Source: Desulfobacterales bacterium
Lineage (GTDB): Bacteria > Desulfobacterota > Desulfobacteria > Desulfobacterales > SpSt-501
NCBI GenBank assembly: GCA_035467535.1
Contig: DATITS010000059.1
Location: 514 to 64,513, forward strand
Direction: 5' to 3'
DNA length: 64,000 nucleotides
Part shown: positions 8,207-41,571 of the stretch, piece by piece
Numbering within the stretch: the first letter of the stretch is position 1
Layout of the letters: each line of letters begins with the position of its first letter
Notes under the pieces: generated by a model
What the model saw: the letters and a program-made list of their open reading frames with translations, nothing else
Told to the model about the DNA's origin: nothing
Databases searched by the model: none
Translations under genes and position numbers: made by a program

Positions 8207-9724
8207 ATGGGCGAACTGTTTGGCATTTTCCAAGGGCTCGCCGAGGGGTTTGGAATTGCCTTCTCGCTGAACAACCTGTTTTTCGCACTAATCGGAGCCC
8301 TTCTGGGCACGATGGTAGGGATTTTACCGGGCCTTGGCCCCTCCGCCACTATTTCCCTCCTCTTGCCGCTGAGTTTCAAGATAGGATCGCCCGTTAGCTC
8401 CATTATCATGATGGCGGGCATCTTTTATGGGGCCATGTACGGTGGCTCCACAACTTCCATCCTCGTCAATATCCCTGGCGAGGCGGCCTCGGTGGTCACC
8501 TGCATTGACGGATATCAAATGGCCAAGAAGGGCAGGGCAGGGCCTGCCTTGGGAATAGCAGCCATCGGATCCTTCATCGCGGGAACCATCGGCGTTATCG
8601 GCCTCACCTTCGTTGCACCCCCCTTGGCGGAGTTCGCCCTGAGCTTCGGTCCGCCGGAGTATTTCTCTCTCACTCTCCTGGGGTTGCTTATGGCAACTCT
8701 CATCGGAGGGGACTCTGTGGTCAAGGGCTTGATCATGGTGGTGGCCGGCCTGCTCATGGGCGCGGTGGGCCTGGATCCAATATCCGGTGCCATCCGATTC
8801 ACCTGGGGCATTCACATGCTTCAGGAGGGGATAGACTTTGTCACCATGGCGATGGGTCTCTTTGGAATTGGCGAAATACTCTTCAACCTGGAGCGGGTCC
8901 TTGTGACAAACTTGGTGACCCGGAAGATCACCCACCTCTGGCCCAGTCTGAAGGATTGGGCCGACTCTAAGTGGGCGATAATCCGGGGCTCATTTATCGG
9001 CTTCTTCATCGGGATCCTCCCGGGCGGGGGGGCCGTCATTTCCTCACTGGCCTCTTATGCCGTAGAGAAAAAAATGTCCAAAAACCCCCAGGAGTTCGGG
9101 AAAGGGGCAATCCAAGGGGTGGCCGGCCCGGAATCCGCGAACAATGCGGCTGCCAGCGCATCCTTCATCCCGCTGTTGACTCTCGGCATCCCTGGCAATG
9201 CAGCAATCGCCATGATTTTTGCGGCCTTGTTGATTCAAGGGGTTACGCCGGGGCCTTTCCTCATCAGCGAAAAGCCGGATATTTTCTGGGGGGTGATCGC
9301 CTCCATGTACATCGGCAACGCCATGCTGCTGATCTTGAACCTTCCCCTGGTGGGTGTGTGGGTACAACTCCTGAGGGTGCCATACTCAATCCTGGCCCCG
9401 GTGATCGTGCTGTTCTGTTGCGTAGGGGTTTACAGCTCCCGCAACTCCGCTTTCGACATCTGGGTCATGGGGGTCTTCGGCGTGATCGGCTACTTCCTGC
9501 GAAAACTGGAATTCGAACCCGGCCCCATGATCCTGGCCTTTGTTTTAGGACCTATCCTGGAAAACGGATTGAGGCAGTCCTTGCTCATGTCGGCTGGAAG
9601 CCCGCTTATATTTGTCTCCCGCCCCATCTCAGGATCGTTGATCGCTATCTTGGTCCTCTTCATCCTGACTCAAGTCGTTTTACGGTTGGCTTGGAAAAAA
9701 CCAGGGGCCGCATCCGGGCGCTGA
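8207..9724 (+). CDS. tctA: Tripartite tricarboxylate transporter large permease TctA
   Basis: The 505-aa polytopic protein contains GILPGLGPSATISLLLP, YGGSTTSILVNIPGE and EKKMSKNPQEFGKGAIQGVAGPESANNA, all typical of TctA. Confidence 0.9.
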   Translation: MGELFGIFQGLAEGFGIAFSLNNLFFALIGALLGTMVGILPGLGPSATISLLLPLSFKIGSPVSSIIMMAGIFYGAMYGGSTTSILVNIPGEAASVVTCIDGYQMAKKGRAGPALGIAAIGSFIAGTIGVIGLTFVAPPLAEFALSFGPPEYFSLTLLGLLMATLIGGDSVVKGLIMVVAGLLMGAVGLDPISGAIRFTWGIHMLQEGIDFVTMAMGLFGIGEILFNLERVLVTNLVTRKITHLWPSLKDWADSKWAIIRGSFIGFFIGILPGGGAVISSLASYAVEKKMSKNPQEFGKGAIQGVAGPESANNAAASASFIPLLTLGIPGNAAIAMIFAALLIQGVTPGPFLISEKPDIFWGVIASMYIGNAMLLILNLPLVGVWVQLLRVPYSILAPVIVLFCCVGVYSSRNSAFDIWVMGVFGVIGYFLRKLEFEPGPMILAFVLGPILENGLRQSLLMSAGSPLIFVSRPISGSLIAILVLFILTQVVLRLAWKKPGAASGR

Positions 9725-9764
9725 GGCCCGGGGGAACGGTCCCGCAGAAAAAAAGGAGGAAGCA

Positions 9765-10751
9765 ATGATAAAGTTGACATCTCGTCTAACGGTGTTGATT
9801 CTGGTGGTCTTCCTGGCGGGGCTCGCGGCAGGGCCGGCCGCATTTGCAGCGGACAAGTACCCCTCCAAACCCATCGAATTGGTCGTTCCCTTCTCTGCCG
9901 GCGGTTCGACGGACGTAATGGCTCGGCTCGTTGCCAAGTTTGCACCCAAACATTTCGATCAGCCCCTGGTGGTCGTCAATAAACCGGGCGGCGGAGGGAT
10001 TACCGGGACGGAAGGTGTGGTGCGATCCGCACCAGACGGCTACTCTCTCTTTGTCGGGTATGGATCGGGCCACGATTTAGTGACCCCCCACTTCCAGAAG
10101 TTGCCCTATGATACCTTCGGGGATCTGGTACCGGTGAGCCGCATTTCCGTACATTCCATCGTGGCGGTCGTTCGTTCGGACGCCCCCTACAAAACCCTCA
10201 AGGAGTTCTTGGCATGGGGCAAGAAAAAGGACCAAGTGACCGCTGCCGTGTCCACTAAAGCGGGGTCGGTTGATATCACGTTTCAGGCGCTGGCGAAGGC
10301 CAGTGGCGTCAATATCGTCACAATCCCTTTTAAGGGTGGAGCTGACGCCGTCAGGACGATCCTGGGCGGCCAAACAGATATCGGAGGCAACCACCCCTCG
10401 GAGATCATGAGCCACATCAAGGCCGGCCGGCTGGTCCCCGTTGGGGTGGCGCTGGAGGAGAGAGATCCCTCCCTCCCCAATGTGCCAACCTTCAAGGAAC
10501 TCGGCTATGACGTGGTGACCGTGGGCTCGGTCAAGGGGGTTGCGGCTCCCAAGGGGACCCCTCCAGAAGTTGTGAAGTATCTGGCAGAGCGGTTTAAAAA
10601 GGTCTGTGAGGACAAGGAATTCATTGCAGCCATGACGGAGATCGGCCAGCCGGTGATGTATCAAGGGCCGCAAGCGTTCGGCAAGTACCTCAAAGACGGC
10701 TTCGACACCTACGGGAAGCTGATCAAGGAATTTAACATCAAGATGGAATAG
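9765..10751 (+). CDS. tctC: TTT substrate-binding protein TctC (Bug family)
   Basis: A signal peptide is followed by YPSKPIELVVPFSAGGSTDVMARL, VNKPGGGG and IPFKGGADA. Confidence 0.9.
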   Translation: MIKLTSRLTVLILVVFLAGLAAGPAAFAADKYPSKPIELVVPFSAGGSTDVMARLVAKFAPKHFDQPLVVVNKPGGGGITGTEGVVRSAPDGYSLFVGYGSGHDLVTPHFQKLPYDTFGDLVPVSRISVHSIVAVVRSDAPYKTLKEFLAWGKKKDQVTAAVSTKAGSVDITFQALAKASGVNIVTIPFKGGADAVRTILGGQTDIGGNHPSEIMSHIKAGRLVPVGVALEERDPSLPNVPTFKELGYDVVTVGSVKGVAAPKGTPPEVVKYLAERFKKVCEDKEFIAAMTEIGQPVMYQGPQAFGKYLKDGFDTYGKLIKEFNIKME

Positions 10752-10790
10752 GCGGAAGACCCGATTCCGCTGCCATTGATGGAACTGATT

Positions 10791-10849
10791 CGCGCGGACC
10801 CCGGAAAAGGCCATGAGGAACTGCACGGGATCCGCGCGGATTGTTTTCT
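10791..10849 (+). terminator. Hairpin plus T-run between tctC and the corrinoid fusion gene (attenuator or partial terminator)
   Basis: The stems are CGCGCGGACCC (10791-10801) and GGGATCCGCGCG (10827-10838), followed by GATTGTTTTCT. The AAGGAG RBS of the next gene follows immediately. Confidence 0.5.
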
Positions 10850-10860
10850 AAGGAGATTAC

Positions 10861-12822
10861 ATGCCGCTGACCCACAAGCAGCGGATGCTTATGGCTGTGC
10901 AAGGCGACTTGCCGGATGAGCTTCCGTATGCCCCCCGCATCGATCTGTGGTACAACGCAAACCTTGCTGCCGGAACCTTGCCTGAGAGACACCGCGGCCG
11001 CACGGCGGACGAGATCGTTTTGGCCGAAGGATGGGCGCTGCACAAGGTGGTGGCGGATCACTTGCGCCAACCCCGCGCGGATGCAATGCTGCACCGAGCA
11101 TTAGGGGTGCATTTCTTGAAGGAGTACGTTGCGCACTTTATATTCACCAAGCGAGTGAAAATCGATGTGCTGCGTGAAGGCGACCGCACGCGCATCCGCT
11201 ACACCACCGCCAAGGGATCCATCAACACCAGCACCGTTTACAGCCAGGAAATGCGGCGCTCTGGCACCTCCGTCCCCTGGATTGAAGAGCATGCCGTCAA
11301 AACACCGGATGATATAGATGTGCTGGCCAGTGTGTTTGAAAATATAGACGTCGTGCCAAATTACGAGACGTTTAAGACCCACGAGACGCAAGTAGGCGAG
11401 AACGGCTTGCCGGTTACCGCCTTCACCGTAGCAGCCGGGCCTGTTCACCATATCCAGAAATACTTTTTGGGTGCGACCGAATTCTTCAATTATTACCACG
11501 ACCACCAGCCTAAACTGCTCCGCCTCGCCGAGGCACTGTCCCCCTTGTATGAAAAGGCATTGCACATCGTCGCAGAATCCCCAGCCCGCGTTATCCAATG
11601 GGGGTCCAACTTCGACGATATGCTCACATTTCCTCCGATGTTCGAGAAACATTTCCTGCCCTGGATCCGGAAAGCCAAAGAGGTGTTAAGTCCTAAAAAC
11701 ATCCGAGTCCTCTGCCATACCGACGGTGAGAACAACGGGCTGATGGACCTTCTGCATGATTCAGGGATGGACGTTGCCGAGGCGGTCTGCCCGGCGCCCA
11801 TGACCAAGGTCACCATCCAGGAGTACTATCGGCGCTGGAGCGATCGGATCACCATTTTCGGCGGAGTGCCCTCCAATCTGCTTCTGCCGCAGCTTACCCC
11901 CGATGAGCAATTTAACAGTTTCATGGATGGGCTTTTCTCCGGCATAGGCGATGGGCGCAGGTTCATCCTTGGCATAGCGGACACCACGCCGCCGGATGCC
12001 GACTTCGAGCGGCTGGTCCGTATCGGCGAGATGGCCCGGGAGAGGGGGCGCCTGCCCCTGAAGGCCGGTTCATTCAACCCGGTTGACCCCGCGGCGGTCG
12101 CCGGGGTGCTTGCAGAAAAGGAATCTGCGGTATCGGACTTGCAAGATACCCGGTTTGCACAAATACGGCGGGCGGTCCTCGAGGGCCGGGAACAGGATCT
12201 CATCGGAGAGGTCCAGGAACTCCTGTTAAAGAAAACCGCCCCCAAGGATATCATCGATCAGGGAATGGTCGCTGCTATGGAAAGCCTCAACGCGTCGTTC
12301 AAAAACGGCACTGTCTTCATACCGGAAGTGCTGGCAGCCGCTCGGGCTATGAATGCGGCCGTGCTCTTTCTGGAACCGCATCTTACTGAAAAAGAAAAAA
12401 ACAGGGGAGGCAAAATCCTGATCGGCACGGTCAAGGGTGACCTTCACGACATCGGTAAAAACATGGTTGCGACCATGCTGCGCGGCGTCGGGTTCAACGT
12501 GACCGACTTGGGGATCAACATTAGCGCCGATCTCTTCGCCAAGAAAATTGCCGAGGAACGCCCGCAGGTCCTGGGGTTGTCCGCTCTGCTCACCACCACC
12601 ATGCCGGAGATGGGCAAGGTCCTGGAAGCGCTTGATAAGGCTGGTTTGAGAAACTCGGTGAAAGTCATGGTTGGTGGAGCCCCGGTAAACGCTCGATTTG
12701 CACGAGATATCGGAGCGGATGGTTACGGCCGCGACGCAGCCGCGGCCGTTGAGGTGGCTAGGGCGCTAGTTGCTGAATCCGCATTTCTTGAGACGAAGGC
12801 CGCAGTGCCGGCCAGGGGATGA
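10861..12822 (+). CDS. Fusion protein: URO-D-like (MtaA/CmuA-superfamily) domain plus B12-binding corrinoid domain
   Basis: The 653-aa protein has a C-terminal part of about 210 aa with a B12-binding_2 helical cap and a Rossmann B12 domain carrying the D-x-H-x-x-G signature (GTVKGDLHDIGKN), plus SALLTTTMP and MVGGAPV. The N-terminal part of about 420 aa resembles uroporphyrinogen-decarboxylase-fold methyltransferases (GSNFDDMLTFPPMFEKHFLPW, VLCHTDGEN, ITIFGGVPSNLL). Confidence 0.75.
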   Translation: MPLTHKQRMLMAVQGDLPDELPYAPRIDLWYNANLAAGTLPERHRGRTADEIVLAEGWALHKVVADHLRQPRADAMLHRALGVHFLKEYVAHFIFTKRVKIDVLREGDRTRIRYTTAKGSINTSTVYSQEMRRSGTSVPWIEEHAVKTPDDIDVLASVFENIDVVPNYETFKTHETQVGENGLPVTAFTVAAGPVHHIQKYFLGATEFFNYYHDHQPKLLRLAEALSPLYEKALHIVAESPARVIQWGSNFDDMLTFPPMFEKHFLPWIRKAKEVLSPKNIRVLCHTDGENNGLMDLLHDSGMDVAEAVCPAPMTKVTIQEYYRRWSDRITIFGGVPSNLLLPQLTPDEQFNSFMDGLFSGIGDGRRFILGIADTTPPDADFERLVRIGEMARERGRLPLKAGSFNPVDPAAVAGVLAEKESAVSDLQDTRFAQIRRAVLEGREQDLIGEVQELLLKKTAPKDIIDQGMVAAMESLNASFKNGTVFIPEVLAAARAMNAAVLFLEPHLTEKEKNRGGKILIGTVKGDLHDIGKNMVATMLRGVGFNVTDLGINISADLFAKKIAEERPQVLGLSALLTTTMPEMGKVLEALDKAGLRNSVKVMVGGAPVNARFARDIGADGYGRDAAAAVEVARALVAESAFLETKAAVPARG

Positions 12823-14138
12823 AAAACGCTATGCAAATTTTATCGAATACCATCGATCGATTGGTGGGGGATGTTCCCATCCCCCGCGTCGTGAAGGTCC
12901 GGCAGAAGTTCGAGCGGCCCTTCATAGCGGATGTTGAAGCAGCGGTTTTAGACCGGCTGCACAGCTCGCGCGTTCTCGACGCTGTGCGACCGGGTATGCG
13001 CATCGCCGTCGGCGTCGGGAGCCGGGGGATCGCCAACCAGCCGCTTGTCGTAAGGCTCTTGGTGAGCCAACTCAAGGCCAAGGGGGCCGAACCGTTCATC
13101 TTCCCCGCCATGGGCAGCCACGGCGGGGCCACGGCGGAAGGGCAGCAGGACCTTCTTGCTCGCACGGGCGTCACGGAGCAGGCCATGGGAGCCCCCATCC
13201 GTTCCACCATGGACGTGGTCGACATGGGAACGGCTGAAAACGGGCTTACGGCATGGTTTGACGCGTATGCCGCCGCGGCGGACGGCATCGTGCTGGTGAA
13301 CCGGATCAAACCCCATGTCTCCTTCAGGGGCCAATACGAGAGCGGCCTGATGAAAATGATCGCCATCGGGCTCGGCAAGCAGAAAGGCGCAGAGGCCAGC
13401 CACCAGCTGGGCATGGAGCGTATGCTCGAAAACATCGTGGCGGTTGGTCGTAAGGCACTTGCGACCGGGAAAATCCTTTTCGGGATCGCCTTGGTCGAGA
13501 ACGCTTACCATGAGACCTGTCGCATCGAGGCCGTCCCCGCCCATCGCATCGAGGAGGAGGAAGTCGCGCTCCAGGCGGAAGCCAAACGACTGGAACCGAG
13601 GATCCTCTTCGACCGCTTGGATGTCCTCATCATCGATGAAATCGGCAAGAACATCTCGGGGACCGGCTTTGACAACAACGTCGTGGGCCGTTACCACCTG
13701 CCGCACATGAAATCCGAAGGCCCCTTCATCACGCGCATCTGCGTTCTGGACATCACCGATGCCTCGCACGGCAACGGCAACGGCCTGGGCATCGTCGACT
13801 TCACCACCGAGCGGGCCTTCCGGAAATTCAGCTTCGAGGAGACCTACCCCAACGCTCTTACCTCCACCGTGCTGGCGAGCGTCAAAATCCCCATGGTGCT
13901 AAAAACCGACCGACTGGCCATCCAGGCGGCAATCAAAACCTGCAATATTGCGGACTTCCGGAACGTGAGGTTGGGGCGCATCAAGAACACCCTCGAGGCC
14001 CACCTGCTGGAGATCTCGGAAAACCTTCTTGATGGGGCCCGGGCAAACCCCGGCATCGATATCCTTTCCGAACCTTACGAACTGGCTTTCAACGCGGAAG
14101 GAAGCCTCCCGGGAGGCGCTCCGGTTTCTCAGCCCTGA
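12819..14138 (+). CDS. LarA_N/DUF2088 (lactate-racemase-domain) family protein, copy 1
   Basis: The 439-aa protein has the blocks FPAMGSHGGAT, DGIVLVNRIKPHVSFRGQYESGLMKMI, ENAYHET and LDVLIIDEIGKNISGTGFD. Its ATG overlaps the upstream stop (ATGA). A paralogue lies at 40303..41571. The family assignment is from memory of the LarA N-terminal architecture and is not exact. Confidence 0.65.
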   Translation: MKNAMQILSNTIDRLVGDVPIPRVVKVRQKFERPFIADVEAAVLDRLHSSRVLDAVRPGMRIAVGVGSRGIANQPLVVRLLVSQLKAKGAEPFIFPAMGSHGGATAEGQQDLLARTGVTEQAMGAPIRSTMDVVDMGTAENGLTAWFDAYAAAADGIVLVNRIKPHVSFRGQYESGLMKMIAIGLGKQKGAEASHQLGMERMLENIVAVGRKALATGKILFGIALVENAYHETCRIEAVPAHRIEEEEVALQAEAKRLEPRILFDRLDVLIIDEIGKNISGTGFDNNVVGRYHLPHMKSEGPFITRICVLDITDASHGNGNGLGIVDFTTERAFRKFSFEETYPNALTSTVLASVKIPMVLKTDRLAIQAAIKTCNIADFRNVRLGRIKNTLEAHLLEISENLLDGARANPGIDILSEPYELAFNAEGSLPGGAPVSQP

Positions 14139-17889: not shown

Positions 17890-18420
17890 ATGGGAGTACC
17901 GAAACCGCTCGCGAAGGATCAGGCGGAATCCAGCATCCGCGAACTTTTCGAAGGCATGCAGGATACCATCGGCAAGATACCCAATGTCTTCGGCGTCATG
18001 GCCCGTTTTCCGGCGGCACTGAAACGCTTCGTGCCCTTTTACAACGCGGTCATGCTGAAAGGCCGGCTCCCGCACAAATTGAAGGAGTTGGCCTATCTGA
18101 AGACCGCCAGCATCAATGCCTGCCAGTACTGACTGCGCGCCCACACTGCTTCGGCGAAGCAGGCCGGCGTGACCGACCGGCAGATCGAAGACCTCCGGTT
18201 CTACCAGCACAGCGAGGCTTACGACGACAAGGAGCGGGCCACCGTGCGCTTTGCCGACCTGGTGACCCGCGGGGCCTCCGCCATCGACGCCTCCGTGCTC
18301 AACTGGCTGGGCCAATACTACTCGGACGATGAAATCGTCGAGCTGGTGATGGTGGTCGCGCTGGCCAACATGGTCAACCGCGTCAACGACACGCTGCAGA
18401 TCGAGCCGGATTTAGGATAG
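17890..18420 (+). CDS. CMD/AhpD-fold protein, predicted selenoprotein (C-x-x-U; in-frame TGA at 18130-18132)
   Basis: ORFs 17890..18132 and 18169..18420 share a frame. Read-through gives ...KTASINACQY-U-LRAHTASAKQAGVTDRQIEDL..., which is the N-x-C-x-x-C-x-x-x-H AhpD motif with the second Cys encoded by TGA. A hairpin follows 13 nt downstream. Confidence 0.7.
18146..18162 (+). promoter_or_regulatory. Candidate SECIS stem-loop for TGA 18130
   Basis: The stems are CTGCTTC and GAAGCAG with a GGC loop, beginning 13 nt after the TGA. Confidence 0.45.
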
Positions 18421-21682: not shown

Positions 21683-22210
21683 CTATAGCCCCTTCTTTTC
21701 AAAAAAGACAAAGGCCAGGATATAGACCACCGCCAGGACTGCGATGACCGGCCAGGGGCCCACGCCCAAAACGCCGGGAAGCGTGATCGGGCCGAGACTG
21801 CCCATTTGCAGAAAACCCTTCTCCAGATACGGGTAGGCCTCGGCGAAAAGCGCCGCGCCGGCCAGCATGCCGAGGATGGCAAAGACCGCGTGCACGCGGC
21901 CCTCGGCCACCGCACCGACGGAGGTGCCGGGGCAAAACCCCATGATGGCCCAGCCGCCGCCGAACAGAATGCCGCCCACGATGTTCGCGCCGAGCACGGT
22001 AGCCTTGGGGCTGAGCTTGACGAGCCCGAACCCGGCCAGCAGGTTGATGCCGACCATGCCCACTATGATGGCGGAGAGCATGAACTTCATGATGGTCATG
22101 TCCTTCAGCAGCATGGCGCCGACCTGTTTTTCAAAACGCAGCACGCGGCCCTGCTGGAGCAAAGCACCGAAGGCCACCCCCGTGATCAGGCCCAGCCATT
22201 GCTCGCTCAT
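21683..22210 (-). CDS. YeeE/YedE family membrane protein (sulfur/selenium-compound transport-like), second half-gene
   Basis: The 175-aa product reads MSEQWLGLITGVAFGALLQQGR...GGGWAIMGFCPGTS. Its ATG overlaps the upstream stop (ATGA). The first 211 aa of the 386-aa track ORF are an out-of-frame overlap artefact. Confidence 0.75.
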   Translation of the reverse strand: MSEQWLGLITGVAFGALLQQGRVLRFEKQVGAMLLKDMTIMKFMLSAIIVGMVGINLLAGFGLVKLSPKATVLGANIVGGILFGGGWAIMGFCPGTSVGAVAEGRVHAVFAILGMLAGAALFAEAYPYLEKGFLQMGSLGPITLPGVLGVGPWPVIAVLAVVYILAFVFFEKKGL

Positions 22211-22746
22211 CGCACACCTCCCGCGCCCCGGTAGACCAGGGCAGCCACCAGCACGCCCGCACCGAAGAAGCAGGCGAGCGCAACGAACCCGCTGACCGAC
22301 AGCTGCATCAACCCGCTCAGCCCGTGCCCGCTCGGGCACCCATCCGCCATGCGGGCACCGAACATGGCCACCGCACCCCCCAGGAAGGCGCCTACTGCAC
22401 GGACCTTCGCGCTGTTTCCGAAACGCTCGCGCCAGACCGGCGGAACGGTCTCCACCTTGAAGCTTCCGTCCGCCAGCGCCGCGGCCAGCGCCCCGATGAA
22501 GACCCCGACGACCAGCATGAACTGCCAGTCGATCTTGACCTTCTCCTTGGCGAAGTAGGCGTTGTTCTTGACATGCTCCGGGGCGAGGCGCTCCTCGATG
22601 AACCCGGCCGCGCGCACGAACGTCGTGGACGCACCCAGGTACTGCGCCTTGCCCAGGACCTTCGTGCTGGCGAAAACGGACACCGTGGCCAGCACGCCAA
22701 CCAGCGCCCCGGCAATGTAAGGCCTCCAGCTGAAACGATTCTGCAT
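22207..22746 (-). CDS. YeeE/YedE family membrane protein, first half-gene
   Basis: MQNRFSWRPYIAGALVGVLA...GARMADGCPSGHGLSG. The start at 22746 follows AAGGAG. Confidence 0.75.
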   Translation of the reverse strand: MQNRFSWRPYIAGALVGVLATVSVFASTKVLGKAQYLGASTTFVRAAGFIEERLAPEHVKNNAYFAKEKVKIDWQFMLVVGVFIGALAAALADGSFKVETVPPVWRERFGNSAKVRAVGAFLGGAVAMFGARMADGCPSGHGLSGLMQLSVSGFVALACFFGAGVLVAALVYRGAGGVR

Positions 22747-23148
22747 GCTTGCTCCTTTGCGGTTGGGCTGCATGGGCCGGCGGAAAGATGCGGAGGGCGT
22801 CCGCGCCGGCACGACGGCAGCCTGCGGGGTGTGATGCGTCCAACTATAGTACGATTCAGCGGAACGCTCAAGCGGATCGGCGATCTCTCACACAAAAGCA
22901 ATAACTATTCATAGATGGACGGCTCTCTTTTTGTCAATTATAAAAAAGGCGCCGCATCTCTTTTGCCTGCGGAGCAGCCCGTCGCAACTTTTTAACGTTT
23001 ACGAAGCAGCCGGGGAAATCGTGAGCCTGAACGTTCTCGTAATTCGAAAAATCGCCCCGCGCCTTGAATTTCACCTTTGCGTGCCCATTTTGAGCAGCAA
23101 ATATGTGAGACCCCATAGCTGCGTTTCATCAGTGGAAAGAATTTCAAA

Positions 23149-25392: not shown

Positions 25393-25457
25393 TCAACAAT
25401 GCCCCTCGGATGATATTGCTGAATGGCAACCAGCTCGCACGAAAGGAGAAAACACCC

Positions 25458-26000
25458 TTGACGTGGACAACATGGATTGAAATCGAACCAGACGACACAA
25501 CCAATGCCACGGTGCAGCAGCTCTACAAGAGCACGCAAGACCGCGCGACGTGCCGCCCTCCCGACACCGTGCGCCTGACCAGTCTGACCCCCAGGGTGGC
25601 CGGCCTTATTCACGACCTCAATCGCGCTATTCACCGCGATGCAAAAGGGCTAACGGCCCGTGAACAAGAGATAGCAGCGCTCATCGTATCTTCTTATAAC
25701 GGGTGAGGACACTGAACAGCCAGCCATCTGGCGGCCCTCGGTCGAGCGGCCCGGAATCAGCAATTGGCAGAACAGGTAAAAAACGACTTTACCAAGGCGG
25801 ACTTGAATCCACGGGAACGGAGAATCGCCGACTTCGCGGTCAAAGTAACCCGTTCTCCCAATGCTTGCAGCCCTGCGGATGTTCAGGCACTGAGAGAGGT
25901 GGGATTAGGCGATAAAGACATTTTGAGCCTTGTGCAGATCATAGCCTACTACAATATGAGCAATCGGCTTTTTGAGTCCCTCAGTACCGTAGATCCTTGA
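25458..26000 (+). CDS. CMD/AhpD-fold peroxidase-related protein, predicted double selenoprotein (U-x-x-U; TGA at 25704-25706 and 25713-25715)
   Basis: ORFs 25410..25706 and 25764..26000 share a frame with only two TGAs between them. Read-through gives LIVSSYNG-U-GH-U-TASHLAAL...RERRIADFAVKVT...IIAYYNMSNRLFESL, so both TGAs sit on the C-x-x-C positions. The start is probably the TTG at 25458, after AAGGAGAAAACACCC; the ATG at 25410 is the alternative. Confidence 0.6.
25719..25751 (+). promoter_or_regulatory. Candidate SECIS region (two adjacent GC-rich stem-loops)
   Basis: One stem-loop is GCCAG-CCAT-CTGGC (25719-25732). The other is GGCC-CTCG-GT-CGAG-C-GGCC (25733-25751). Confidence 0.35.
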
Positions 26001-26100
26001 AAGCAAAATTGCCGCCATCAGGCAGCACGATATCGGGTTTGCGGTAGAGGACTGGTCATCCTTTATGTTTCTGCAGGTTTCCAGAACCTCCAAGCAGTCC

Positions 26101-26326: not shown

Positions 26327-27514
26327 ATGAAAATGGATTTCAAACTCAACAGTGAACAGACACGGATGATTGCGGCGTTAGACGAACTCGGTCGCAAAGA
26401 ATTTGCGCCGAAAGCGGCGCGATGGGACGAAAATCATGAATACCCCTGGGAAAACCTCCACATGCTCCGAGAACTCGGTTTTCTCGGGATGACGATTCCC
26501 GAGGCATATGGCGGCCAGGGGCGCCCCCTCATCGATGCCATATTGGCCATTGAAACGGCAGCCAAGTATTGCGGCGTGACCGCCCGCATACTGGTTGAAA
26601 CCAACATGGGGGCACTTGGATGCGTAATGGCATATGGTACGGAAGCTCAACGGAAGCTGGTGGCGCATCGCATCATCCACGAAGGGGATAAACCGGCTAT
26701 CGGCATGACCGAACCGGAAGCCGGAACCGCCTTGACAGACCTTCAGGCCACTGCTGAAAAGAAGGGTGAAAACTATGTGGTCAACGGGACGAAGCATTGG
26801 ATTACCGGAGGGGGCATTTCTGTAACCAATCTGATTTTTGTACGATTTGTCGAGGACGGCAAAGACCTCGGAATCGGCGGGATTCTTGTGGACAAAGGAA
26901 CACCCGGGTTCAGCTTCGGAACCGTTGAAAAGGCGATGGGGCTGAGAGGCATACCGGAGGCAGAGCTCATCTTTAAAAATTGCACGGTCTCTCCGGAAAA
27001 CGTGGTCGTTAAGGGCGAGGGAAACGAGGGCTTCAAGAAACTCATGTACGGATACAACGGTCAGAGGGTGGGGGCCAGCGCCGTTGCAATGGGAATCGCC
27101 CAGGGTGCGCATGAGCTCGCCATCGATTGGATGAAACGCCGGAAGGCATTCGGCAAAACGCTATCCGAATTCCAGGGCCTCCAGTGGATGATGGCGGATG
27201 CTGAAATCAAGCTGAACGCTGCCCGCCTGCTCATCTACCGCGCAGCATGCAATGCCCGGGACCTACCGAACAATGTCAAGCTGCCGCAAATGGATGAAGC
27301 CTCAATGGCCAAGGCCTACACCGGGCATGTGGCACTGGAAGTGGTCAGCGAAAGCCTCCAGATGTTCGGCGCCTATGGCTATTCGCAATCGCTGCCGCTG
27401 GAGCGCATGTTCCGCGACGTGCGCATGTTCCAGATCGGCGGCGGGACAACGCAGGCGCAGATCAATATGGTGGCACGGTCCATTTTCAGCAAAAAGTTCA
27501 ACTACCGGAATTAG
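26327..27514 (+). CDS. Acyl-CoA dehydrogenase-fold flavoprotein lacking both canonical catalytic glutamates (3-sulfinopropionyl-CoA-desulfinase-like?)
   Basis: The 395-aa protein shows the ACAD fold (GMTEPEAGTA, HWITGGG, FQGLQWMMAD). The Y-E-G-T site reads QIGGGTTQAQ and the helix-G alternative site reads YNGQRVGAS. Confidence 0.8.
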   Translation: MKMDFKLNSEQTRMIAALDELGRKEFAPKAARWDENHEYPWENLHMLRELGFLGMTIPEAYGGQGRPLIDAILAIETAAKYCGVTARILVETNMGALGCVMAYGTEAQRKLVAHRIIHEGDKPAIGMTEPEAGTALTDLQATAEKKGENYVVNGTKHWITGGGISVTNLIFVRFVEDGKDLGIGGILVDKGTPGFSFGTVEKAMGLRGIPEAELIFKNCTVSPENVVVKGEGNEGFKKLMYGYNGQRVGASAVAMGIAQGAHELAIDWMKRRKAFGKTLSEFQGLQWMMADAEIKLNAARLLIYRAACNARDLPNNVKLPQMDEASMAKAYTGHVALEVVSESLQMFGAYGYSQSLPLERMFRDVRMFQIGGGTTQAQINMVARSIFSKKFNYRN

Positions 27515-27537
27515 ATGGCCCGATGAAAGGGATCGCG

Positions 27538-28734
27538 ATGAATCAGAAGCTTCCGTTACAAGGCATGAAAGTACTTGATTTCACCCGTGTCCTTGCGGGG
27601 CCCTTTGCTACCATGATCCTCGGAGATATGGGGGCTGAGGTGATCAAGGTCGAGCCGCCTCAAGGGGATGAGAGCAGGACGTGGCCGCCAAAGCTAGCCC
27701 GCGGCGAAAGCGGATACTATATGGCTCTCAACCGCAACAAGCAGTCCATCACTCTCAACCTAAAACACCCGCGCGCGCGCGAAATCGCGGTCCAACTAGC
27801 TGAAAAGGCCGATGTGGTAATTGAAAACTTTACTCCGGGGGTCGCCAAAAAGCTGGGAATCGATTATGACACCATCGCGGCAAAAAACCCGGCCGTCATT
27901 TATTGCGCGGTCTCCGGATTTGGCCAAACCGGCCCCTATCGGGACAAGAAGGCTTACGACCCCATTATTCAAGGGATGACCGGCCTCATGTCCATCACCG
28001 GGGAGCGTACCCGCTCGCCGGTTAAGGTGGGGATACCGATCACAGACCTGGTCGCTGCCATTCAATCGGTGAACGCGATCATGGCGGCCTACGTTCACAG
28101 GATGCAGACCGGTGAAGGGCAGTTTATCGACGTCGCTCTGTTCGACAGCACGCTGAGCCTTCTCACCATCATGGCCATGGATTATTTTGCGACCGGAAAG
28201 CCGCCCGAGCGCTGGGGAATGGACCACATTCATCGCGTCCCGGCCAGGGCCTTCCAGACGCGCGACGGTCGTTATGTGCAGGTCGCCGCCACCAGCGACA
28301 CCATGTACCCGGACTTCTGCCGCGTGCTGGACCTGGAGCATCTCATTGCCGATCCGAGGTTCCGAACGAACGCCGACCGGGTCAGAAACCGCGACATCAT
28401 CATGCCGATTCTCGAGGCCAGAATGCTGGAAAAAGACAGCACGGAGTGGCTGAGCCTGTTCGAGGCCGCGGGTATTCCCTGCGGCCCGATCCTCAATATG
28501 GAGGAAGTGTTTCAAGACCCCCACGTGGCCGCCCGGCAAATGCTGTTTTCGATGGAACACCCGACGGAAGGCAGCATCCCGCAGATAGGGTTTCCCTATA
28601 AATTCTCCCGCACACCCCTTCAGGCCCGGATATGCCCGCCTCGACTGGGTGCGGACACGTCCGCGGTTCTCTCGGATTGGTTGGAAATGCAGGCGGCCGA
28701 CATCGAAGGGTTGCGCCGGGAGGGTGCGATATGA
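27538..28734 (+). CDS. Class III (CaiB/BaiF family) CoA-transferase
   Basis: MNQKLPLQGMKVLDFTRVLAGPFATMILGDMGAEVIKVEPP...GDESR...DLVAAIQ. The start could instead be 27523. Confidence 0.85.
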   Translation: MNQKLPLQGMKVLDFTRVLAGPFATMILGDMGAEVIKVEPPQGDESRTWPPKLARGESGYYMALNRNKQSITLNLKHPRAREIAVQLAEKADVVIENFTPGVAKKLGIDYDTIAAKNPAVIYCAVSGFGQTGPYRDKKAYDPIIQGMTGLMSITGERTRSPVKVGIPITDLVAAIQSVNAIMAAYVHRMQTGEGQFIDVALFDSTLSLLTIMAMDYFATGKPPERWGMDHIHRVPARAFQTRDGRYVQVAATSDTMYPDFCRVLDLEHLIADPRFRTNADRVRNRDIIMPILEARMLEKDSTEWLSLFEAAGIPCGPILNMEEVFQDPHVAARQMLFSMEHPTEGSIPQIGFPYKFSRTPLQARICPPRLGADTSAVLSDWLEMQAADIEGLRREGAI

Positions 28735-37153: not shown

Positions 37154-38686
37154 TTAGTTTTTTCTTTCTGCGCCAGCGGTTCGGCACAGGTTTCCGGTCC
37201 GGATGATGCGCGGTTTGATCCAGGCGATCAGGATGGGACCCAGCAGCACCAGGACCCCGACAAGCAGGATCGTGCCCGCAATGGGCCGATTCAGAAAGAC
37301 CGTCAGGTCACCCCGGCTGATCATCATCGCCTCCCGGAAGCTTCGCTCCATCATGGGGCCGAGGACCAGGGCCAACACCAGAGGCGCCAGGTCGTACTTG
37401 AGGCGCCGCAGGAGATAGCCCAAAAGACCGAAGCCGGTCATGAGCCAAATGTCGAGGATCGAGTTGTTGACGGAGTAAACGCCCACCAGGCACAGCAGCA
37501 TGACAATCGGCATGAGAATGTAGAGAGGGGTCCGGATGATGCTCGCAAAAACACCCACCAGGGGGAGATTGAAGACGAGAAGCATGAAGTTGCCGATATA
37601 CATGCTGGCAATGACGCCCCAGAAGAGATCGGGTTTTTCGCTCATCAGCAAGGGGCCGGGGTTGATCCCGTGGATCAAAAGGACCGCCATCACCACCGCC
37701 ATGGCGGGAGTGAAGGGAATCCCCAGCGCCATCAGCGGGATATAAGCGGCTCCGACCGAAGCATTGTTGGCCGCCTCGGGCCCTGCAACTCCTTCGATGG
37801 CGCCCTTGCCGAACTCTCCGTGCTTGTCGAGCTTTTTCTCTACGGAATAGGCAACCATGGTTGAGATGACCGGGGAGGGACCGGGGACAAGACCGACGAA
37901 AAAGCCGATAAAAGAACCCCGGATCATGGGCCAAAACGACCGCTTCCACTCCACGAGCGTCGGCCACAGCTCCCGGAAGCCAACCCGCCGCAGTTGCATG
38001 TTCCCGGTCTGTTCTTCTGCCGTGACAAGCACTTCGGAAATACCGAAAAGCCCCATGGCGACCGGGAGAAAATCGATGCCCTGCGCCAGAAGCTGCTGCT
38101 TGAAGGTGTAGCGCATGTACCCGGCCACGGTCTCCATGCCGACCGTTCCGAGAGCCAGCCCGAGGGCGATCATCATCAGCGATCTGACAAGATTACCCCC
38201 CGTCAAGCGCGACATGATCACAAGCCCGACAAGGGCGACGGCAAAATACTCTGACGGCCCGAACTTGAGGGCTGCCGTTGCCAGTGTGGGAGCCAGAAAG
38301 CTCAGACCGATCAGGCTGATCGTTCCGGCGATGAACGATCCGATGGCGGCGACGGCAAGGGCGGCTCCGGCGCGGCCCCGGCGAGCCATCTGGTAGCCTT
38401 CGATCACCGTGATGACGGAGGCGGCCTCCCCGGGGATGTTGAGCAGGATGGAGGTGGTCGAGCCCCCGTACATTGCGCCGAAGTAGATGCCGGCAAAAAG
38501 GATCATGCCCGCCGTTGGGTCGAAACCGTAGGTCAGAGACAGGAGCAGCGCCATCGTCCCCAGGGGGCCCAGACCCGGCAGGATGCCGATGATCGTTCCA
38601 ATCACCGCCCCCAGGAATCCGAATAAAAGATTGGTGGGGGTCAATGCGACCGAAAAACCGTTTAGAAGTCCTCCAAAGACATCCAT
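37154..38686 (-). CDS. tctA: TTT large permease TctA, copy 2
   Basis: The 510-aa protein shares the conserved blocks of 8207..9724 (GILPGLGPLGTMALLL, YGGSTTSILLNIPGE, GVAGPEAANNA). Confidence 0.9.
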   Translation of the reverse strand: MDVFGGLLNGFSVALTPTNLLFGFLGAVIGTIIGILPGLGPLGTMALLLSLTYGFDPTAGMILFAGIYFGAMYGGSTTSILLNIPGEAASVITVIEGYQMARRGRAGAALAVAAIGSFIAGTISLIGLSFLAPTLATAALKFGPSEYFAVALVGLVIMSRLTGGNLVRSLMMIALGLALGTVGMETVAGYMRYTFKQQLLAQGIDFLPVAMGLFGISEVLVTAEEQTGNMQLRRVGFRELWPTLVEWKRSFWPMIRGSFIGFFVGLVPGPSPVISTMVAYSVEKKLDKHGEFGKGAIEGVAGPEAANNASVGAAYIPLMALGIPFTPAMAVVMAVLLIHGINPGPLLMSEKPDLFWGVIASMYIGNFMLLVFNLPLVGVFASIIRTPLYILMPIVMLLCLVGVYSVNNSILDIWLMTGFGLLGYLLRRLKYDLAPLVLALVLGPMMERSFREAMMISRGDLTVFLNRPIAGTILLVGVLVLLGPILIAWIKPRIIRTGNLCRTAGAERKN

Positions 38687-38698
38687 GACGCTTTGCTC

Positions 38699-39187
38699 CT
38701 ATCCCAGAACCTCTTCCAGAATCCCGAGAGGCAGGGGGACTTTCAACCAGATGACGAAGGCGACATAGGAAATAGCGGTAATAATCGTTGCGGTGACCAG
38801 GGTGATAACCCAATGGCGCGAGCCGAAGATGCGGGTCGAAATCAGCAGGAAGATACAGATGGTGACGGGAAAACCGAGCGGGGTCAGCGCGAGGATGTAA
38901 CCGATCATGAGCGCCATCAGCTGAACGGTTTTGCCGAAATTGCCTTCAGCGGATGCAGCCTCACCCGAGGAGGGGGCACCCGGTTGACGGTCAACGGCTT
39001 TACACTTCAGGATTTCCTGAACAAGGCATCCCAGCGCCGTGGCGATCAGAAAAACGCCCACCACCAAGGGAAAGAAGCCGGGGCCGGGGTAGGCCATAGT
39101 GCCCCGGGGCATATACAAGGCCATGATCTCATAGACCACCCCGACCGCGAGCATCACACCCGGAAATATGGCTGAGGTCAGCTTCAT
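38699..39187 (-). CDS. tctB: TTT small subunit TctB, copy 2
   Basis: This is a 162-aa, 4-TM protein placed between tctC and tctA. Confidence 0.75.
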   Translation of the reverse strand: MKLTSAIFPGVMLAVGVVYEIMALYMPRGTMAYPGPGFFPLVVGVFLIATALGCLVQEILKCKAVDRQPGAPSSGEAASAEGNFGKTVQLMALMIGYILALTPLGFPVTICIFLLISTRIFGSRHWVITLVTATIITAISYVAFVIWLKVPLPLGILEEVLG

Positions 39188-39247
39188 TCGAACACCTCAG
39201 GCGGGAGAGACCCACGGCCTCTCCCGCCCCCCGCATTCAGAGGAAGA

Positions 39248-40243
39248 TCATTTCGCAGCGCCCGCTGCTTTACCGTACTTATTCCAAAGGGGTTGGTAGA
39301 TCGAATCCAGTTTCTTGATAAAAGCGGCGTATTCTTCCGGCCCTTTGTAATCAGCCGGAAAGGCCGTCTTTTGCACATTCGCTTTAAATTCCTCCGAATC
39401 CATTACCTGTTTTACTGCGGCGGCGAAAAGGTCGATGATGGGCTTGGGGGTGTTCTTGGGCATGGCAAACCCCCTCGCCGAGCCGCTGGTAACGTCGTAC
39501 CCCAGTTCTTTAAAGGTGGGAACGTCGGGGAGGAACGGACTACGCTTATCCGTCATGATCGCCAGCGCCCGGAGTGAGCCCGCTTTGACTTGAGGGTAAA
39601 CAATTCCCAGGTTGTTGGCGGAGGCGTCGACGTGGCCGGCCAGCGCGGCCTGCCAGGAAGGACCGTCTCCACTGAATGGGACGATGTTGAATTTGGCTTG
39701 CGATGCCGCTTCGAACATGTAGGTGGCAAACCAGTCATCCCCGGGTGCTGAGGCGACGCCTACGCCGACCGTTCCAGGCTTATCCGTGGCCGCCTTGAGG
39801 ATATCCGCCAACGTCATATAGGGGCTTTCCGCCCGGACCACTAGAATGCCAGGATCTGTAACGACATTGGCGACGAAGGCAAGATCTGACGTCTTGTAGC
39901 TGGTTTCCCGAACATACGTGTTGATGGGAATCATGGGGGTGCAGGAGATGAAGACCGTGTAGCCGTCGGGCTTGGACATGGCCAACTCGGTCGCGGCGAT
40001 GTCGCTGCCGGCGCCCGGCTTGTAGACCGGTACCAAGGTGGCATTGAGCGCCTTTTCAAGTTGTGGCCTTATCATGGAAAACATGACGTCACTGCCTCCT
40101 CCGGGAGAAAAGCCGATCAAGACATTGATCGGCTTCCTGGGATAGTTGGCATCGGCCGATTTCCCTTGAGCAAAAACGTTCGTCGCAAGAACCATAATTA
40201 AAAATGCGATAACGCTGAATCCGGATTTCGTGCACATGTTCAT
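39248..40243 (-). CDS. tctC: TTT substrate-binding protein TctC, copy 2
   Basis: A signal peptide is followed by YPRKPINVLIGFSPGGGSDV and VPFSGDGPSWQA. The start MNMCTKS (40243) follows AGGAGGAGAG. Confidence 0.85.
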   Translation of the reverse strand: MNMCTKSGFSVIAFLIMVLATNVFAQGKSADANYPRKPINVLIGFSPGGGSDVMFSMIRPQLEKALNATLVPVYKPGAGSDIAATELAMSKPDGYTVFISCTPMIPINTYVRETSYKTSDLAFVANVVTDPGILVVRAESPYMTLADILKAATDKPGTVGVGVASAPGDDWFATYMFEAASQAKFNIVPFSGDGPSWQAALAGHVDASANNLGIVYPQVKAGSLRALAIMTDKRSPFLPDVPTFKELGYDVTSGSARGFAMPKNTPKPIIDLFAAAVKQVMDSEEFKANVQKTAFPADYKGPEEYAAFIKKLDSIYQPLWNKYGKAAGAAK

Positions 40244-40302
40244 CTCTCCTCCTGTTGTCACGTTATCATTGTTCAGGGCCTAACGCCCGTTGGCCGCGCA
40301 GA

Positions 40303-41571
40303 TTAGAAAAGATTACCCTGGTCATTGAAAGCCAAGACGTGCGGCTCGCCCGGCGTTTCAAGGTGCCTGCTCGCCCTCACCTCCGGCAGCAGGTTCTCCG
40401 ACACGGCGATTTCATCCAGGGCAACGGTGTTCTTGATCCGCGCCAGCCGGACTTTTGATTTGTCCAGTATGTTGCAGGTCTTGATCGCCGCCTGGATGGC
40501 GTGGCGATCGTTTTTCAAAACCATCGGGATCTTCACGCTCATCGGAACAGTGGACGTGAGCGAGTTGGGATAGGTGTTCTCGAAGTCGAACTTGCCGAAC
40601 GCCCGCCGCGTGGTGAAATCCAGGATCCCCAGGCCGTTGGCATTGCCGTGCGACCGGTCGGTGATGTCGAGGCCTGCGATCCTGGTGATCGCAGGCCCGC
40701 CGCTGACAAACGGGGTATGGTAACGCCCGACCACGTTGGTATCGAAGCCCGTGCCGCTGATGTCCTTTCCGATCTCGTCTATGATCAGGACATCGAGCTG
40801 CTCGAAGTATAATTTGGGGTACAGGCGCCAGGCCTCTTCCAGCAGCACCGGTTCGCGCACCGGGATCTCCTCCCGGGCAAGCACTTCCAGCTGTGCGGTT
40901 TCGTGGTAAGCGTTTTCGAGAATGCCCACGCCGCAGATGATGTTCGACTTTGCCAGGGTCACTCGACCGATGGACAGGATGTTTTCCGCCATCTTGCCAA
41001 ACCCCAGCTCATGGCAGATATCGGCGCCCTTCTGTTTGCCCATGCCGATGACGATCATCTTCATCAGCCCGCTTTCACATTTTCCGCGAAAGGCCACGTG
41101 GGGCTTGATGCGGTTGACGACCACGATCCCGTCGGCCTCATAGGCGTATTTGTCCAGGTGGGCCGGAAACCCGTTCTCGGAAGTCCCGATCTCCACGGTT
41201 TCCATGGTCGCACGGATGGGGGCTCCGACAACCTCCTCGGTGATGCCCATACCGATGAGCATGTCGCGCTGGCCTTCAGGTGTGGCGCCGCCGTGGCTGC
41301 CCATGGCCGGAAACAAAAAGGGTTCGCCCCCGGCCCGCTTGATCTCTGATACCAGGCTTTTCAGCATCTGCGGCAATGCGGTGATTCCGCGGCTCCCGGC
41401 GGTGATGCCGATCTTGTGACCCGGCTTCACTTTCGCAAGGACGCCGCTGTCTCGAACTTTCCGGATCAGTTCGCTCTCGACATCGAGGACCCGCGGCCGA
41501 TCAAAGGCCTGCAGGACTTTAATCATTCTGGGAATCGGTATGCCATCCAAAAGAGTGTCGATCGTGCTCAT
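40303..41571 (-). CDS. LarA_N/DUF2088 family protein, copy 2
   Basis: The 422-aa protein is colinear with 12819..14138 and shares long identical blocks (FPAMGSHGGAT, VNRIKPHV, ESGLMKMI, ENAYHET, LDVLIIDEIGK, ISGTGFD, NVVGRYH, AIQAAIKTCNI). Confidence 0.65.
   Translation of the reverse strand: MSTIDTLLDGIPIPRMIKVLQAFDRPRVLDVESELIRKVRDSGVLAKVKPGHKIGITAGSRGITALPQMLKSLVSEIKRAGGEPFLFPAMGSHGGATPEGQRDMLIGMGITEEVVGAPIRATMETVEIGTSENGFPAHLDKYAYEADGIVVVNRIKPHVAFRGKCESGLMKMIVIGMGKQKGADICHELGFGKMAENILSIGRVTLAKSNIICGVGILENAYHETAQLEVLAREEIPVREPVLLEEAWRLYPKLYFEQLDVLIIDEIGKDISGTGFDTNVVGRYHTPFVSGGPAITRIAGLDITDRSHGNANGLGILDFTTRRAFGKFDFENTYPNSLTSTVPMSVKIPMVLKNDRHAIQAAIKTCNILDKSKVRLARIKNTVALDEIAVSENLLPEVRASRHLETPGEPHVLAFNDQGNLF

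Follow-up and report, generated by a model that had tools for sequence, protein, structure and literature searches.

An AhpD-like gene of a Desulfobacterales bacterium with in-frame UGA codons at both redox-cysteine positions: a candidate Sec-x-x-Sec protein with a single SECIS-type hairpin

The stretch of DNA analysed here (hereafter, the window) comprises 64,000 nucleotides (nt) from a Desulfobacterales bacterium (assembly GCA_035467535.1, contig DATITS010000059.1), and our subject is one of its genes, which codes for an AhpD-like protein of the CMD superfamily and carries an in-frame UGA codon at each of its two redox-cysteine positions, both predicted to be read as selenocysteine (Sec, or U in one-letter code). 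The gene lies on the forward strand in a single frame of 197 codons (25410-26000), where the only internal stops are TGA at 25704-25706 and TGA at 25713-25715. A mechanical list of open reading frames (ORFs) splits it into two ORFs of the same frame (25410-25706 and 25764-26000); that these are parted only by the two TGAs had been noted in a first-pass annotation, made by a model from the letters and that list, and is borne out by the translation of 25410-26000. Based on translation, Pfam and NCBIfam models, homologues and the ratio of non-synonymous to synonymous substitution rates (dN/dS), the coding sequence (CDS) was delimited at 25458-26000 (plus strand; 180 residues, family TIGR01926), with the TGA at 25998-26000 as its terminal stop. 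The true start is likely the TTG at 25458, since a Shine-Dalgarno-like AAAGGAGA (25442-25449, plus strand) stands 9 nt before it and all homologues begin at the same position, with an ATG or a TTG as start codon and an N-terminus of the form M/L-x-W-x-x-W-I.

When both UGAs are read through, the peptide runs ...SSYNG-U-GH-U-TASHLAALGRAA... or, numbered from TTG 25458, ...EQE71IAALIVSSYNG-U83-G-H85-U86-TAS-H90-LAALGRAA.... According to the column alignment, UGA1 (25704-25706, plus strand) is residue 83, at the first position of the C-x-x-C motif and equivalent to Cys130 of Mycobacterium tuberculosis AhpD, whereas UGA2 (25713-25715, plus strand) is residue 86, at the second position and equivalent to Cys133 of the same protein; both are predicted to encode Sec, hence the designation UxxU used below. 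With Cys substituted at both UGAs for the search, the best model for the window protein is NCBIfam TIGR01926 “peroxidase-related enzyme” (122.5 bits, cut-off 81.8), and Pfam CMD PF02627 is also recognized (47.1 bits, threshold 23; E = 2.4e-12), while TIGR00777 is reached at E = 1e-4 only, so that M. tuberculosis AhpD is distant in sequence; the NCBIfam profile search found no clade-specific model for the UxxU gene. Both TGAs align on the CxxC columns of the Cys homologues P0006 (CVHC) and P0012 (CWYC). A sequence search of the PDB returned the uncharacterised peroxidase-related proteins 2oyo, 2prr, 2pfx and 3c1l, as well as the AhpD-like protein of Deinococcus radiodurans (6k40), and the UGA positions correspond to C-x-x-C in every PDB alignment (2oyo, 3c1l and 6k40 among the solved structures). 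The earlier claim that both TGAs fall on catalytic Cys columns is upheld by these alignments.

The proton relay of M. tuberculosis AhpD consists of E118, C130, H132, C133 and H137 (PMC3141380), and its signature E-x11-C-x-H-C-x3-H is reproduced with identical spacing in the window protein (E71, U83, H85, U86, H90). The relay is thus conserved residue for residue, although M. tuberculosis AhpD is a Cys protein and a remote one in sequence. As a structural proxy, we used the AlphaFold model of P0006, the one natural Cys/Cys homologue, which is 55% identical to the window protein. This model is all-helical (predicted local distance difference test, pLDDT, 82), with a helix-turn-helix formed by helices 67-81 and 84-98, the second of which carries the CxxC at its N-cap. 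Its best Foldseek neighbour is 6k40 (template-modelling score, TM, 0.72; E = 5e-9), i.e., D. radiodurans DR1765, a Cys protein that needs its CxxC for H2O2 tolerance (PMC8945050). Judged from its sequence and from this proxy, the product of the UxxU gene is a roughly 20-kDa all-helical AhpD-like redox protein, for which the analogy with such proteins suggests a peroxidase or reductase role. The P0006 model also resembles the CMD-fold debrominase Bmp8 (Foldseek 6ohi/6ohj, TM about 0.65). Bmp8 is a Cys-dependent reductive dehalogenase, and this likeness serves as a caution that a CxxC in an AhpD fold does not by itself denote a peroxidase.

Searches at the protein and DNA levels turned up 75 family loci, the homologues being 53-77% identical to the window protein over their full length. 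The arrangement TGA-N6-TGA is found at the same columns in 12 loci (the window, L001, L002, L004, L005, L006, L008, L027, L057, L066, L118 and L124), which are 62-97% identical to each other and vary in the residues between the two UGAs (GH, AH, VH, EH, LR). All the full-length sequences among them (11 of the 12) have exactly two in-frame stops; four of the 12 come from metagenome-assembled genomes labelled Desulfobacteraceae, Desulfobacterales or Thermodesulfobacteriota. A thirteenth lineage is represented by a database protein (P0013) that ends after ...SSGNG. Because the identical arrangement recurs in 11 other independent assemblies, a chance origin of TGA-N6-TGA is excluded by the sequence comparison. 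The other relatives, about 60 in number, are C-x-x-U (TGY ... TGA) and were found in Desulfobacterota, Acidobacteriota, Anaerolineaceae, Gemmatimonadota, Planctomycetota and others. The UGA1 column is therefore TGA in 12 sequences and TGC or TGT in about 60 relatives, while the UGA2 column is TGA in 75 of the 75 family loci that bear the hairpin described below, which belong to at least six phyla.

Among pairs of UxxU sequences, dN/dS amounts to 0.15 on the upstream side of the UGAs and to 0.11 on the downstream side (dS 0.6-2.9). The low downstream value indicates that the part beyond both stops is translated and constrained, and both halves of what is an intact gene are under purifying selection. 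The first-pass annotation had seen the look of Sec recoding, not of random decay, and the orthologues agree with it, since they keep their TGAs without extra stops and show purifying selection downstream, the sole frameshifts being those of one locus, L003. To this can be added the 56 hairpin-bearing members from metagenomes, 51 of which are CxxU and five UxxU, with no UxxC and no CxxC; this set was retrieved by the hairpin sequence, leaving the first codon free among TGN, and about half of the 120 pattern matches were unrelated. The neighbour-joining tree of UxxU and CxxU forms is poorly supported (monophyly of all UxxU: 0/100 bootstraps; of the main nine: 2/100), and does not fix the number of UxxU origins.

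The AhpD-like Sec family is systematically mis-annotated in public gene calls, some of which stop at the UGA, some put a W there and some change frame. The products predicted by the Joint Genome Institute (JGI; P0001-P0005) show W at the Sec UGAs (W-x-x-W, C-x-x-W), and one of them (P0001, L001 720-1310) passes the true stop and adds a false, unconserved tail of 16 residues. In other databases, only fragments are found, ending in ...NG or ...GCVH. For L003 (10001-10579, ENA ERZ25039603 contig_5731; P0007), the public call, made on a MAG, reads the middle of the gene in another frame owing to two 1-nt indels that compensate each other (one T too many after AACGGG and one C too few in a run of C); these frameshifts are probably an assembly error that hides a CxxU gene, the contig name suggesting a long-read assembly. 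A dedicated annotation rule would recover the mis-called AhpD-like genes.

Within the CDS, a SECIS-type hairpin (SECIS, selenocysteine insertion sequence) occupies positions 25734-25750 on the plus strand (GCC-CUC-[GGUC]-GAG-C(bulge)-GGC, with its loop at 25740-25743) and encodes A-L-G-R-A; it was delineated using RNAalifold, a codon test, the minimum free energy (MFE) and the criteria of the bSECIS model for bacterial SECIS elements. The window version gains a further G-C pair and so spans 25733-25751 (GGCCCUC-GGUC-GAG-C-GGCC, -9.9 kcal/mol), and the MFE in relatives ranges from -7.6 to -9.9 kcal/mol. The form GCC-CUC-[GGUC]-GAG-Y-GGC, in which the bulged base is C or U, is common to all Sec-containing members, CxxU and UxxU alike. 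When RNAalifold was run on the 20 sequences gathered by protein similarity, i.e., blind to the nucleotide sequence, this hairpin was the sole structure predicted; one compensatory pair change (C-G to G-C) was observed, in L017. The strongest evidence for an RNA element is the codon test, computed on 18 sequences: out of 27 invariant columns with four- or six-fold degeneracy, only L94, G95 and R96 (CTC GGT CGA) use a single codon, the remaining columns using two to six codons each. The hairpin is thus under selection at the nucleotide level. The Cys/Cys homologue P0006, which is devoid of the hairpin, has TEKLEKITRT in place of the AALGRAA of the Sec forms.

Counted from UGA2 and UGA1, respectively, the distance is 18 and 27 nt to the start of the stem (6-7 bp, one bulge) and 24 and 33 nt to the loop. 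The bSECIS model expects a spacing of 16-37 nt, a G in the first two loop positions and an MFE at or below -7.5 (PMC13188914); applied by hand, it accommodates the hairpin for both UGAs. The first-pass annotation had pointed to a stem-loop with GGU at its tip, and a stable one does lie at SECIS distance, with a GGUC loop, a spacing within the model and an invariant nucleotide sequence. That annotation had actually listed two stem-loops, at 25719-25732 and 25733-25751, both of which are present in the MFE fold of the window, but only the second is conserved. The first (GCCAG-CCAU-CUGGC, plus strand), located between UGA2 and the SECIS, was considered as a second SECIS dedicated to UGA1 and rejected: it lacks a loop G, is broken in L002, L004, L006 and L009 and, while not conserved in UxxU members, is present in some CxxU members. 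It is probably incidental.

The SECIS of Escherichia coli fdhF, the one defined by experiment, has an apical loop GGUC, one bulged pyrimidine and a stem that starts 11 nt after the UGA. The window hairpin resembles it in its loop GGUC, in its single bulged pyrimidine and in being a short hairpin inside the CDS, a general feature of bacterial SECIS elements (PMC8659212). It differs from it in having its bulge on the 3' side, in the larger distance of its stem (18 or 27 nt versus 11 nt) and in its lack of a conserved lower stem.

A second AhpD-like gene is found upstream (17890-18420, plus strand), as had been noticed in the first reading of the sequence, which described it as a CMD gene with a TGA at one Cys. 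Its translation includes C-Q-Y-U, with the UGA at 18130-18132 (plus strand), and it matches TIGR01926 at 85.8 bits (versus a cut-off of 81.8) and, below the model cut-off, NF053654 “YciW-related (seleno)protein”. A perfect 7-bp hairpin (CUGCUUC-[GGC]-GAAGCAG, 18146-18162, plus strand) could be read in its sequence, the first loop G being nt +24 from the U of the UGA; this hairpin has SECIS features and is unlike that of the UxxU gene. A second, CxxU gene with a hairpin of its own lends indirect support to the idea that the organism decodes Sec. Scanning the window for pairs of ORFs joined by a TGA revealed this AhpD-like gene as the only other selenoprotein candidate.

Altogether, we hold it to be very probable that the UxxU gene is functional and that both its UGAs are read through. 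That both residues are Sec and that a single hairpin delivers them appears likely to us. The sharing of one SECIS by both UGAs, as presumed in the first-pass annotation, fits the data: one and the same hairpin is common to the UxxU and CxxU forms, and neither has another conserved structure. In the mechanism that we propose, SelB would bind the hairpin at 25734-25750 (apical loop GGUC), embedded in the coding sequence, as a bacterial SECIS. With 18 nt between UGA2 and the stem, and 27 nt in the case of UGA1, the hairpin should still be folded outside the ribosome with either UGA in the A site, and two successive SelB-GTP-Sec-tRNA complexes could use it in turn. U-x-x-U would descend from a C-x-x-U ancestor through one substitution, TGY to TGA, in the codon of the first Cys, and the long spacer of this ancestor would have made a UGA located 9 nt upstream immediately decodable; the switch from C to U probably happened, or reverted, more than once. 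In the protein, the attack on an oxidised partner or a peroxide would fall to Sec86, which takes the place of the nucleophile Cys133 in M. tuberculosis AhpD, and Sec83 would resolve the adduct into an intramolecular diselenide, as opposed to the selenenyl-sulfide of CxxU forms, which would make a redox centre of very low potential. Taken as a whole, i.e., a diselenide-forming Sec-x-x-Sec in the AhpD/CMD fold, evolved repeatedly from CxxU ancestors in Desulfobacterota, with one 17-nt hairpin recoding both UGAs, this is the reading that we favour, if only cautiously.

Several observations weigh against it. At 33 nt from the loop, UGA1 is near the upper limit of the bSECIS model and well beyond the geometry of E. 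coli fdhF, and the hairpin is so invariant that its covariation support is confined to the one compensatory pair. Rfam yielded no SECIS family in the whole window at the gathering threshold and, at E up to 10 over 25680-25800 and 18100-18220, no SECIS family either, the matches obtained being due to chance. Moreover, the 91-nt block at 25700-25790 folds no better than shuffled sequence (z = 0.69); since the block is not unusually stable, the signal consists in the conservation of one small hairpin and not in overall stability. As for sampling, the metagenome set was retrieved with the hairpin itself, which leaves the 20 sequences derived from genomes or proteins as the only ones free of bias on this feature. 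Finally, no selA, selB, selD or tRNA-Sec was found in the 64-kb window (tRNA scan; Pfam/NCBIfam on about 40 ORFs, including 30 of the largest), which has no tRNA gene at all, as is the case of 24 related loci. Sec decoding by the organism is only inferred as a consequence, although 64 kb says nothing about the genome, and the identity of the inserted amino acid as Sec is a prediction made from the sequence.

The main rival explanation retains the SECIS and changes the amino acid: one or both UGAs would be recoded as Cys by a SelB-compatible tRNA-ReC (SelC*-type, Cys-charged), leading to a mature CxxU, UxxC or CxxC protein. Such a scheme has a parallel in the UxxU group 4 [NiFeSe] hydrogenases: tRNA-ReC-like genes are enriched in genomes with UxxU motifs and occur in two of six Desulfobacterota with UxxU, where either or both UGAs may be Cys (PMC13582414). 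In the AhpD-like family, however, the constancy of TGA at UGA2 across all hairpin-bearing members and at least six phyla fits a classical CxxU family, and TGY, which most relatives have at position 1, could encode Cys directly. Keeping a costly UGA in 12 lineages argues for a product other than Cys, and we regard Cys recoding as unlikely. Less probable still, in our view, is that UGA1 mainly terminates translation, either as a selenium-dependent attenuator or as a leaky defect, in which case the gene would mostly produce an 82-residue fragment and UxxU would be tolerated rather than selected. Decoding might indeed be inefficient at a UGA so far from the SECIS loop, TGY to TGA is a single-base change, and the absence of support for a single stable UxxU clade (0/100) is compatible with frequent gain and loss. 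Yet UxxU persists between sequences that are only 62% identical and separated by a dS of 0.6-2.9, with a dN/dS near 0.1 downstream, a pattern that one would not expect of a UGA1 largely blocking expression.

Two further explanations, which would do away with recoding, are effectively refuted. If the locus were a pseudogene or a sequencing artefact, the TGAs would reflect decay or errors, and it is true that gene callers split or shorten the gene and that a public homologue (L003/P0007) has two frameshifts. But both TGAs are present in 12 independent assemblies free of any other stop or frameshift, purifying selection acts on both halves of the gene, selection on the hairpin operates at the nucleotide level, and the L003 frameshifts look like compensating assembly errors, which leaves this explanation a very slim chance. 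Even less likely is a genetic code (4 or 25) that makes UGA a sense codon for Trp or Gly, to which the W of the JGI products P0001-P0005 would point. TGA is the normal stop in the window, where it ends many Pfam-supported genes (TctA, sigma-54 activator, CoA-transferase, DctM, amidohydrolase, Ldh_2), which refutes the sense reading; in P0001, the translation of UGA as W overruns the conserved C-terminus into an unconserved tail, and Trp is unsuited to a CxxC redox site.

AhpD-like selenoproteins are a long-known and abundant family (TIGR01926 / COG2128 YciW; “AhpD-like 1” in the Sargasso Sea and Global Ocean Sampling (GOS) data). In GOS, 299 “AhpD-like 1” genes with the motif CxxU were reported (PMC2398784), while seven AhpD-like selenoproteins were described in Olavius symbionts (PMC1976440), and the table of a 2026 review gives TIGR01926 AhpD-like proteins as CxxU with one Sec (PMC13188914; see also PMC9312934). 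This corroborates the first-pass statement that Sec is known in AhpD-like proteins but not as a Sec pair. The window gene shares with the CxxU family a Sec at the second Cys and a SECIS within the CDS, about 60 of its nearest relatives being CxxU with an identical hairpin. It departs from it in that the first Cys is also a UGA, resulting in two Sec three positions apart. With respect to its family and to the class of SECIS-dependent selenoproteins, the sequence of the UxxU gene supports its membership in both on every criterion tested; the hairpin itself falls under no Rfam family.

The same review table has UxxU entries for three groups only, namely Prx-like PF00578, a putative metal-binding protein of the MerA type and the FmdB family (PMC13188914; see also PMC9312934), and UXXU group 4 [NiFeSe] hydrogenases were described in 2026 (PMC13582414). 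In such proteins (SelL/Prx-like thiol:disulfide oxidoreductase PF00578, either UxxC or UxxU; the putative MerA-type protein NF041115; FmdB TIGR02605; large subunits of group 4 [NiFeSe] hydrogenases), two UGAs stand two codons apart, as in the window gene, but the folds are thioredoxin-like, metal-binding or hydrogenase, in contrast to the all-alpha AhpD/CMD protein of the window, which is not homologous to them. The chemistry is different too, with a proton-relay CxxC at a helix N-cap in the latter versus Ni ligands or a Trx-type site in the former. Lacking the thioredoxin-like (Prx) fold of SelL and being AhpD/CMD by family and proxy model, the window protein is analogous to the SelL/Prx-like UxxU proteins but does not belong to them. 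SelL has been reported to form a diselenide (PMC2397514). For the UXXU hydrogenases, a single downstream SECIS has been proposed for both UGAs, CxxU and UxxU forms sharing the SECIS (PMC13582414). No earlier description of a UxxU or diselenide AhpD was found in the full texts searched, including the BSepDB paper, which is silent on the matter, the BSepDB entries themselves being outside the search. The UxxU protein is thus apparently an unreported two-selenium form of the known AhpD-like CxxU family.

To our knowledge, few bacterial selenoproteins are as abundant as the AhpD-like CxxU proteins, none of which has been characterised biochemically. UxxU proteins, their CxxU sisters and one CxxC homologue constitute a ready-made series on the same scaffold, which would show the effect of changing the resolving Cys to Sec on redox potential and turnover (diselenide versus selenenyl-sulfide versus disulfide). 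It would also show whether two UGAs, at 24 nt and 33 nt, can both be decoded from one bacterial SECIS, a question raised in 2026 for the UxxU hydrogenases. Should our reading be true, the family would offer a compact natural system for studying the reach of a SECIS and the benefit of a diselenide over a selenenyl-sulfide, with dual UGA decoding by one SECIS and a diselenide in a new fold; given the UxxU precedents elsewhere, this would come as no shock to specialists.

Regarding the surroundings of the UxxU gene, a G+C-rich inverted repeat (TGCCGCCATCAGGCAGCA, 26010-26027) begins 10 nt past its stop and was picked up by the terminator scan as a possible terminator, the score being that of the minus strand, where the tail is T-rich; it may work as a terminator in both directions. 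No ahpC, lipoamide-system or thioredoxin-system partner is adjacent to the gene, and no conserved neighbourhood or operon partner was found apart from L057, a relative at the strain level, and L118, which matches in part. Directly downstream (26327-28734, plus strand) are an acyl-CoA dehydrogenase and a CaiB-type CoA-transferase, the former being most like a 3-sulfinopropanoyl-CoA desulfinase (484.6 bits, below the cut-off of 600). The same pair exists in L118 (6475-9055; 83% and 66% identity), about 4 kb from its UxxU gene, and is the only trace of a common neighbourhood. About 2.6 kb upstream of the UxxU gene, the minus strand carries a half-size ORF (22207-22812) that is YeeE/YedE-like (TsuA / selenium-metabolism membrane protein). 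Selenoproteins (GUxSG) do occur in this family; the ORF, being a Cys form (GCPSG), was rejected as a selenoprotein candidate. Farther away, two separate sets of TctA/TctC tripartite tricarboxylate transporter genes are encoded (8207-14138, plus strand; 37154-41571, minus strand), each adjoining a LarA-like (Lar_N) gene and one of them also adjoining a URO-D/B12-binding fusion (10861-12822); they look like a duplicated module for uptake and conversion.

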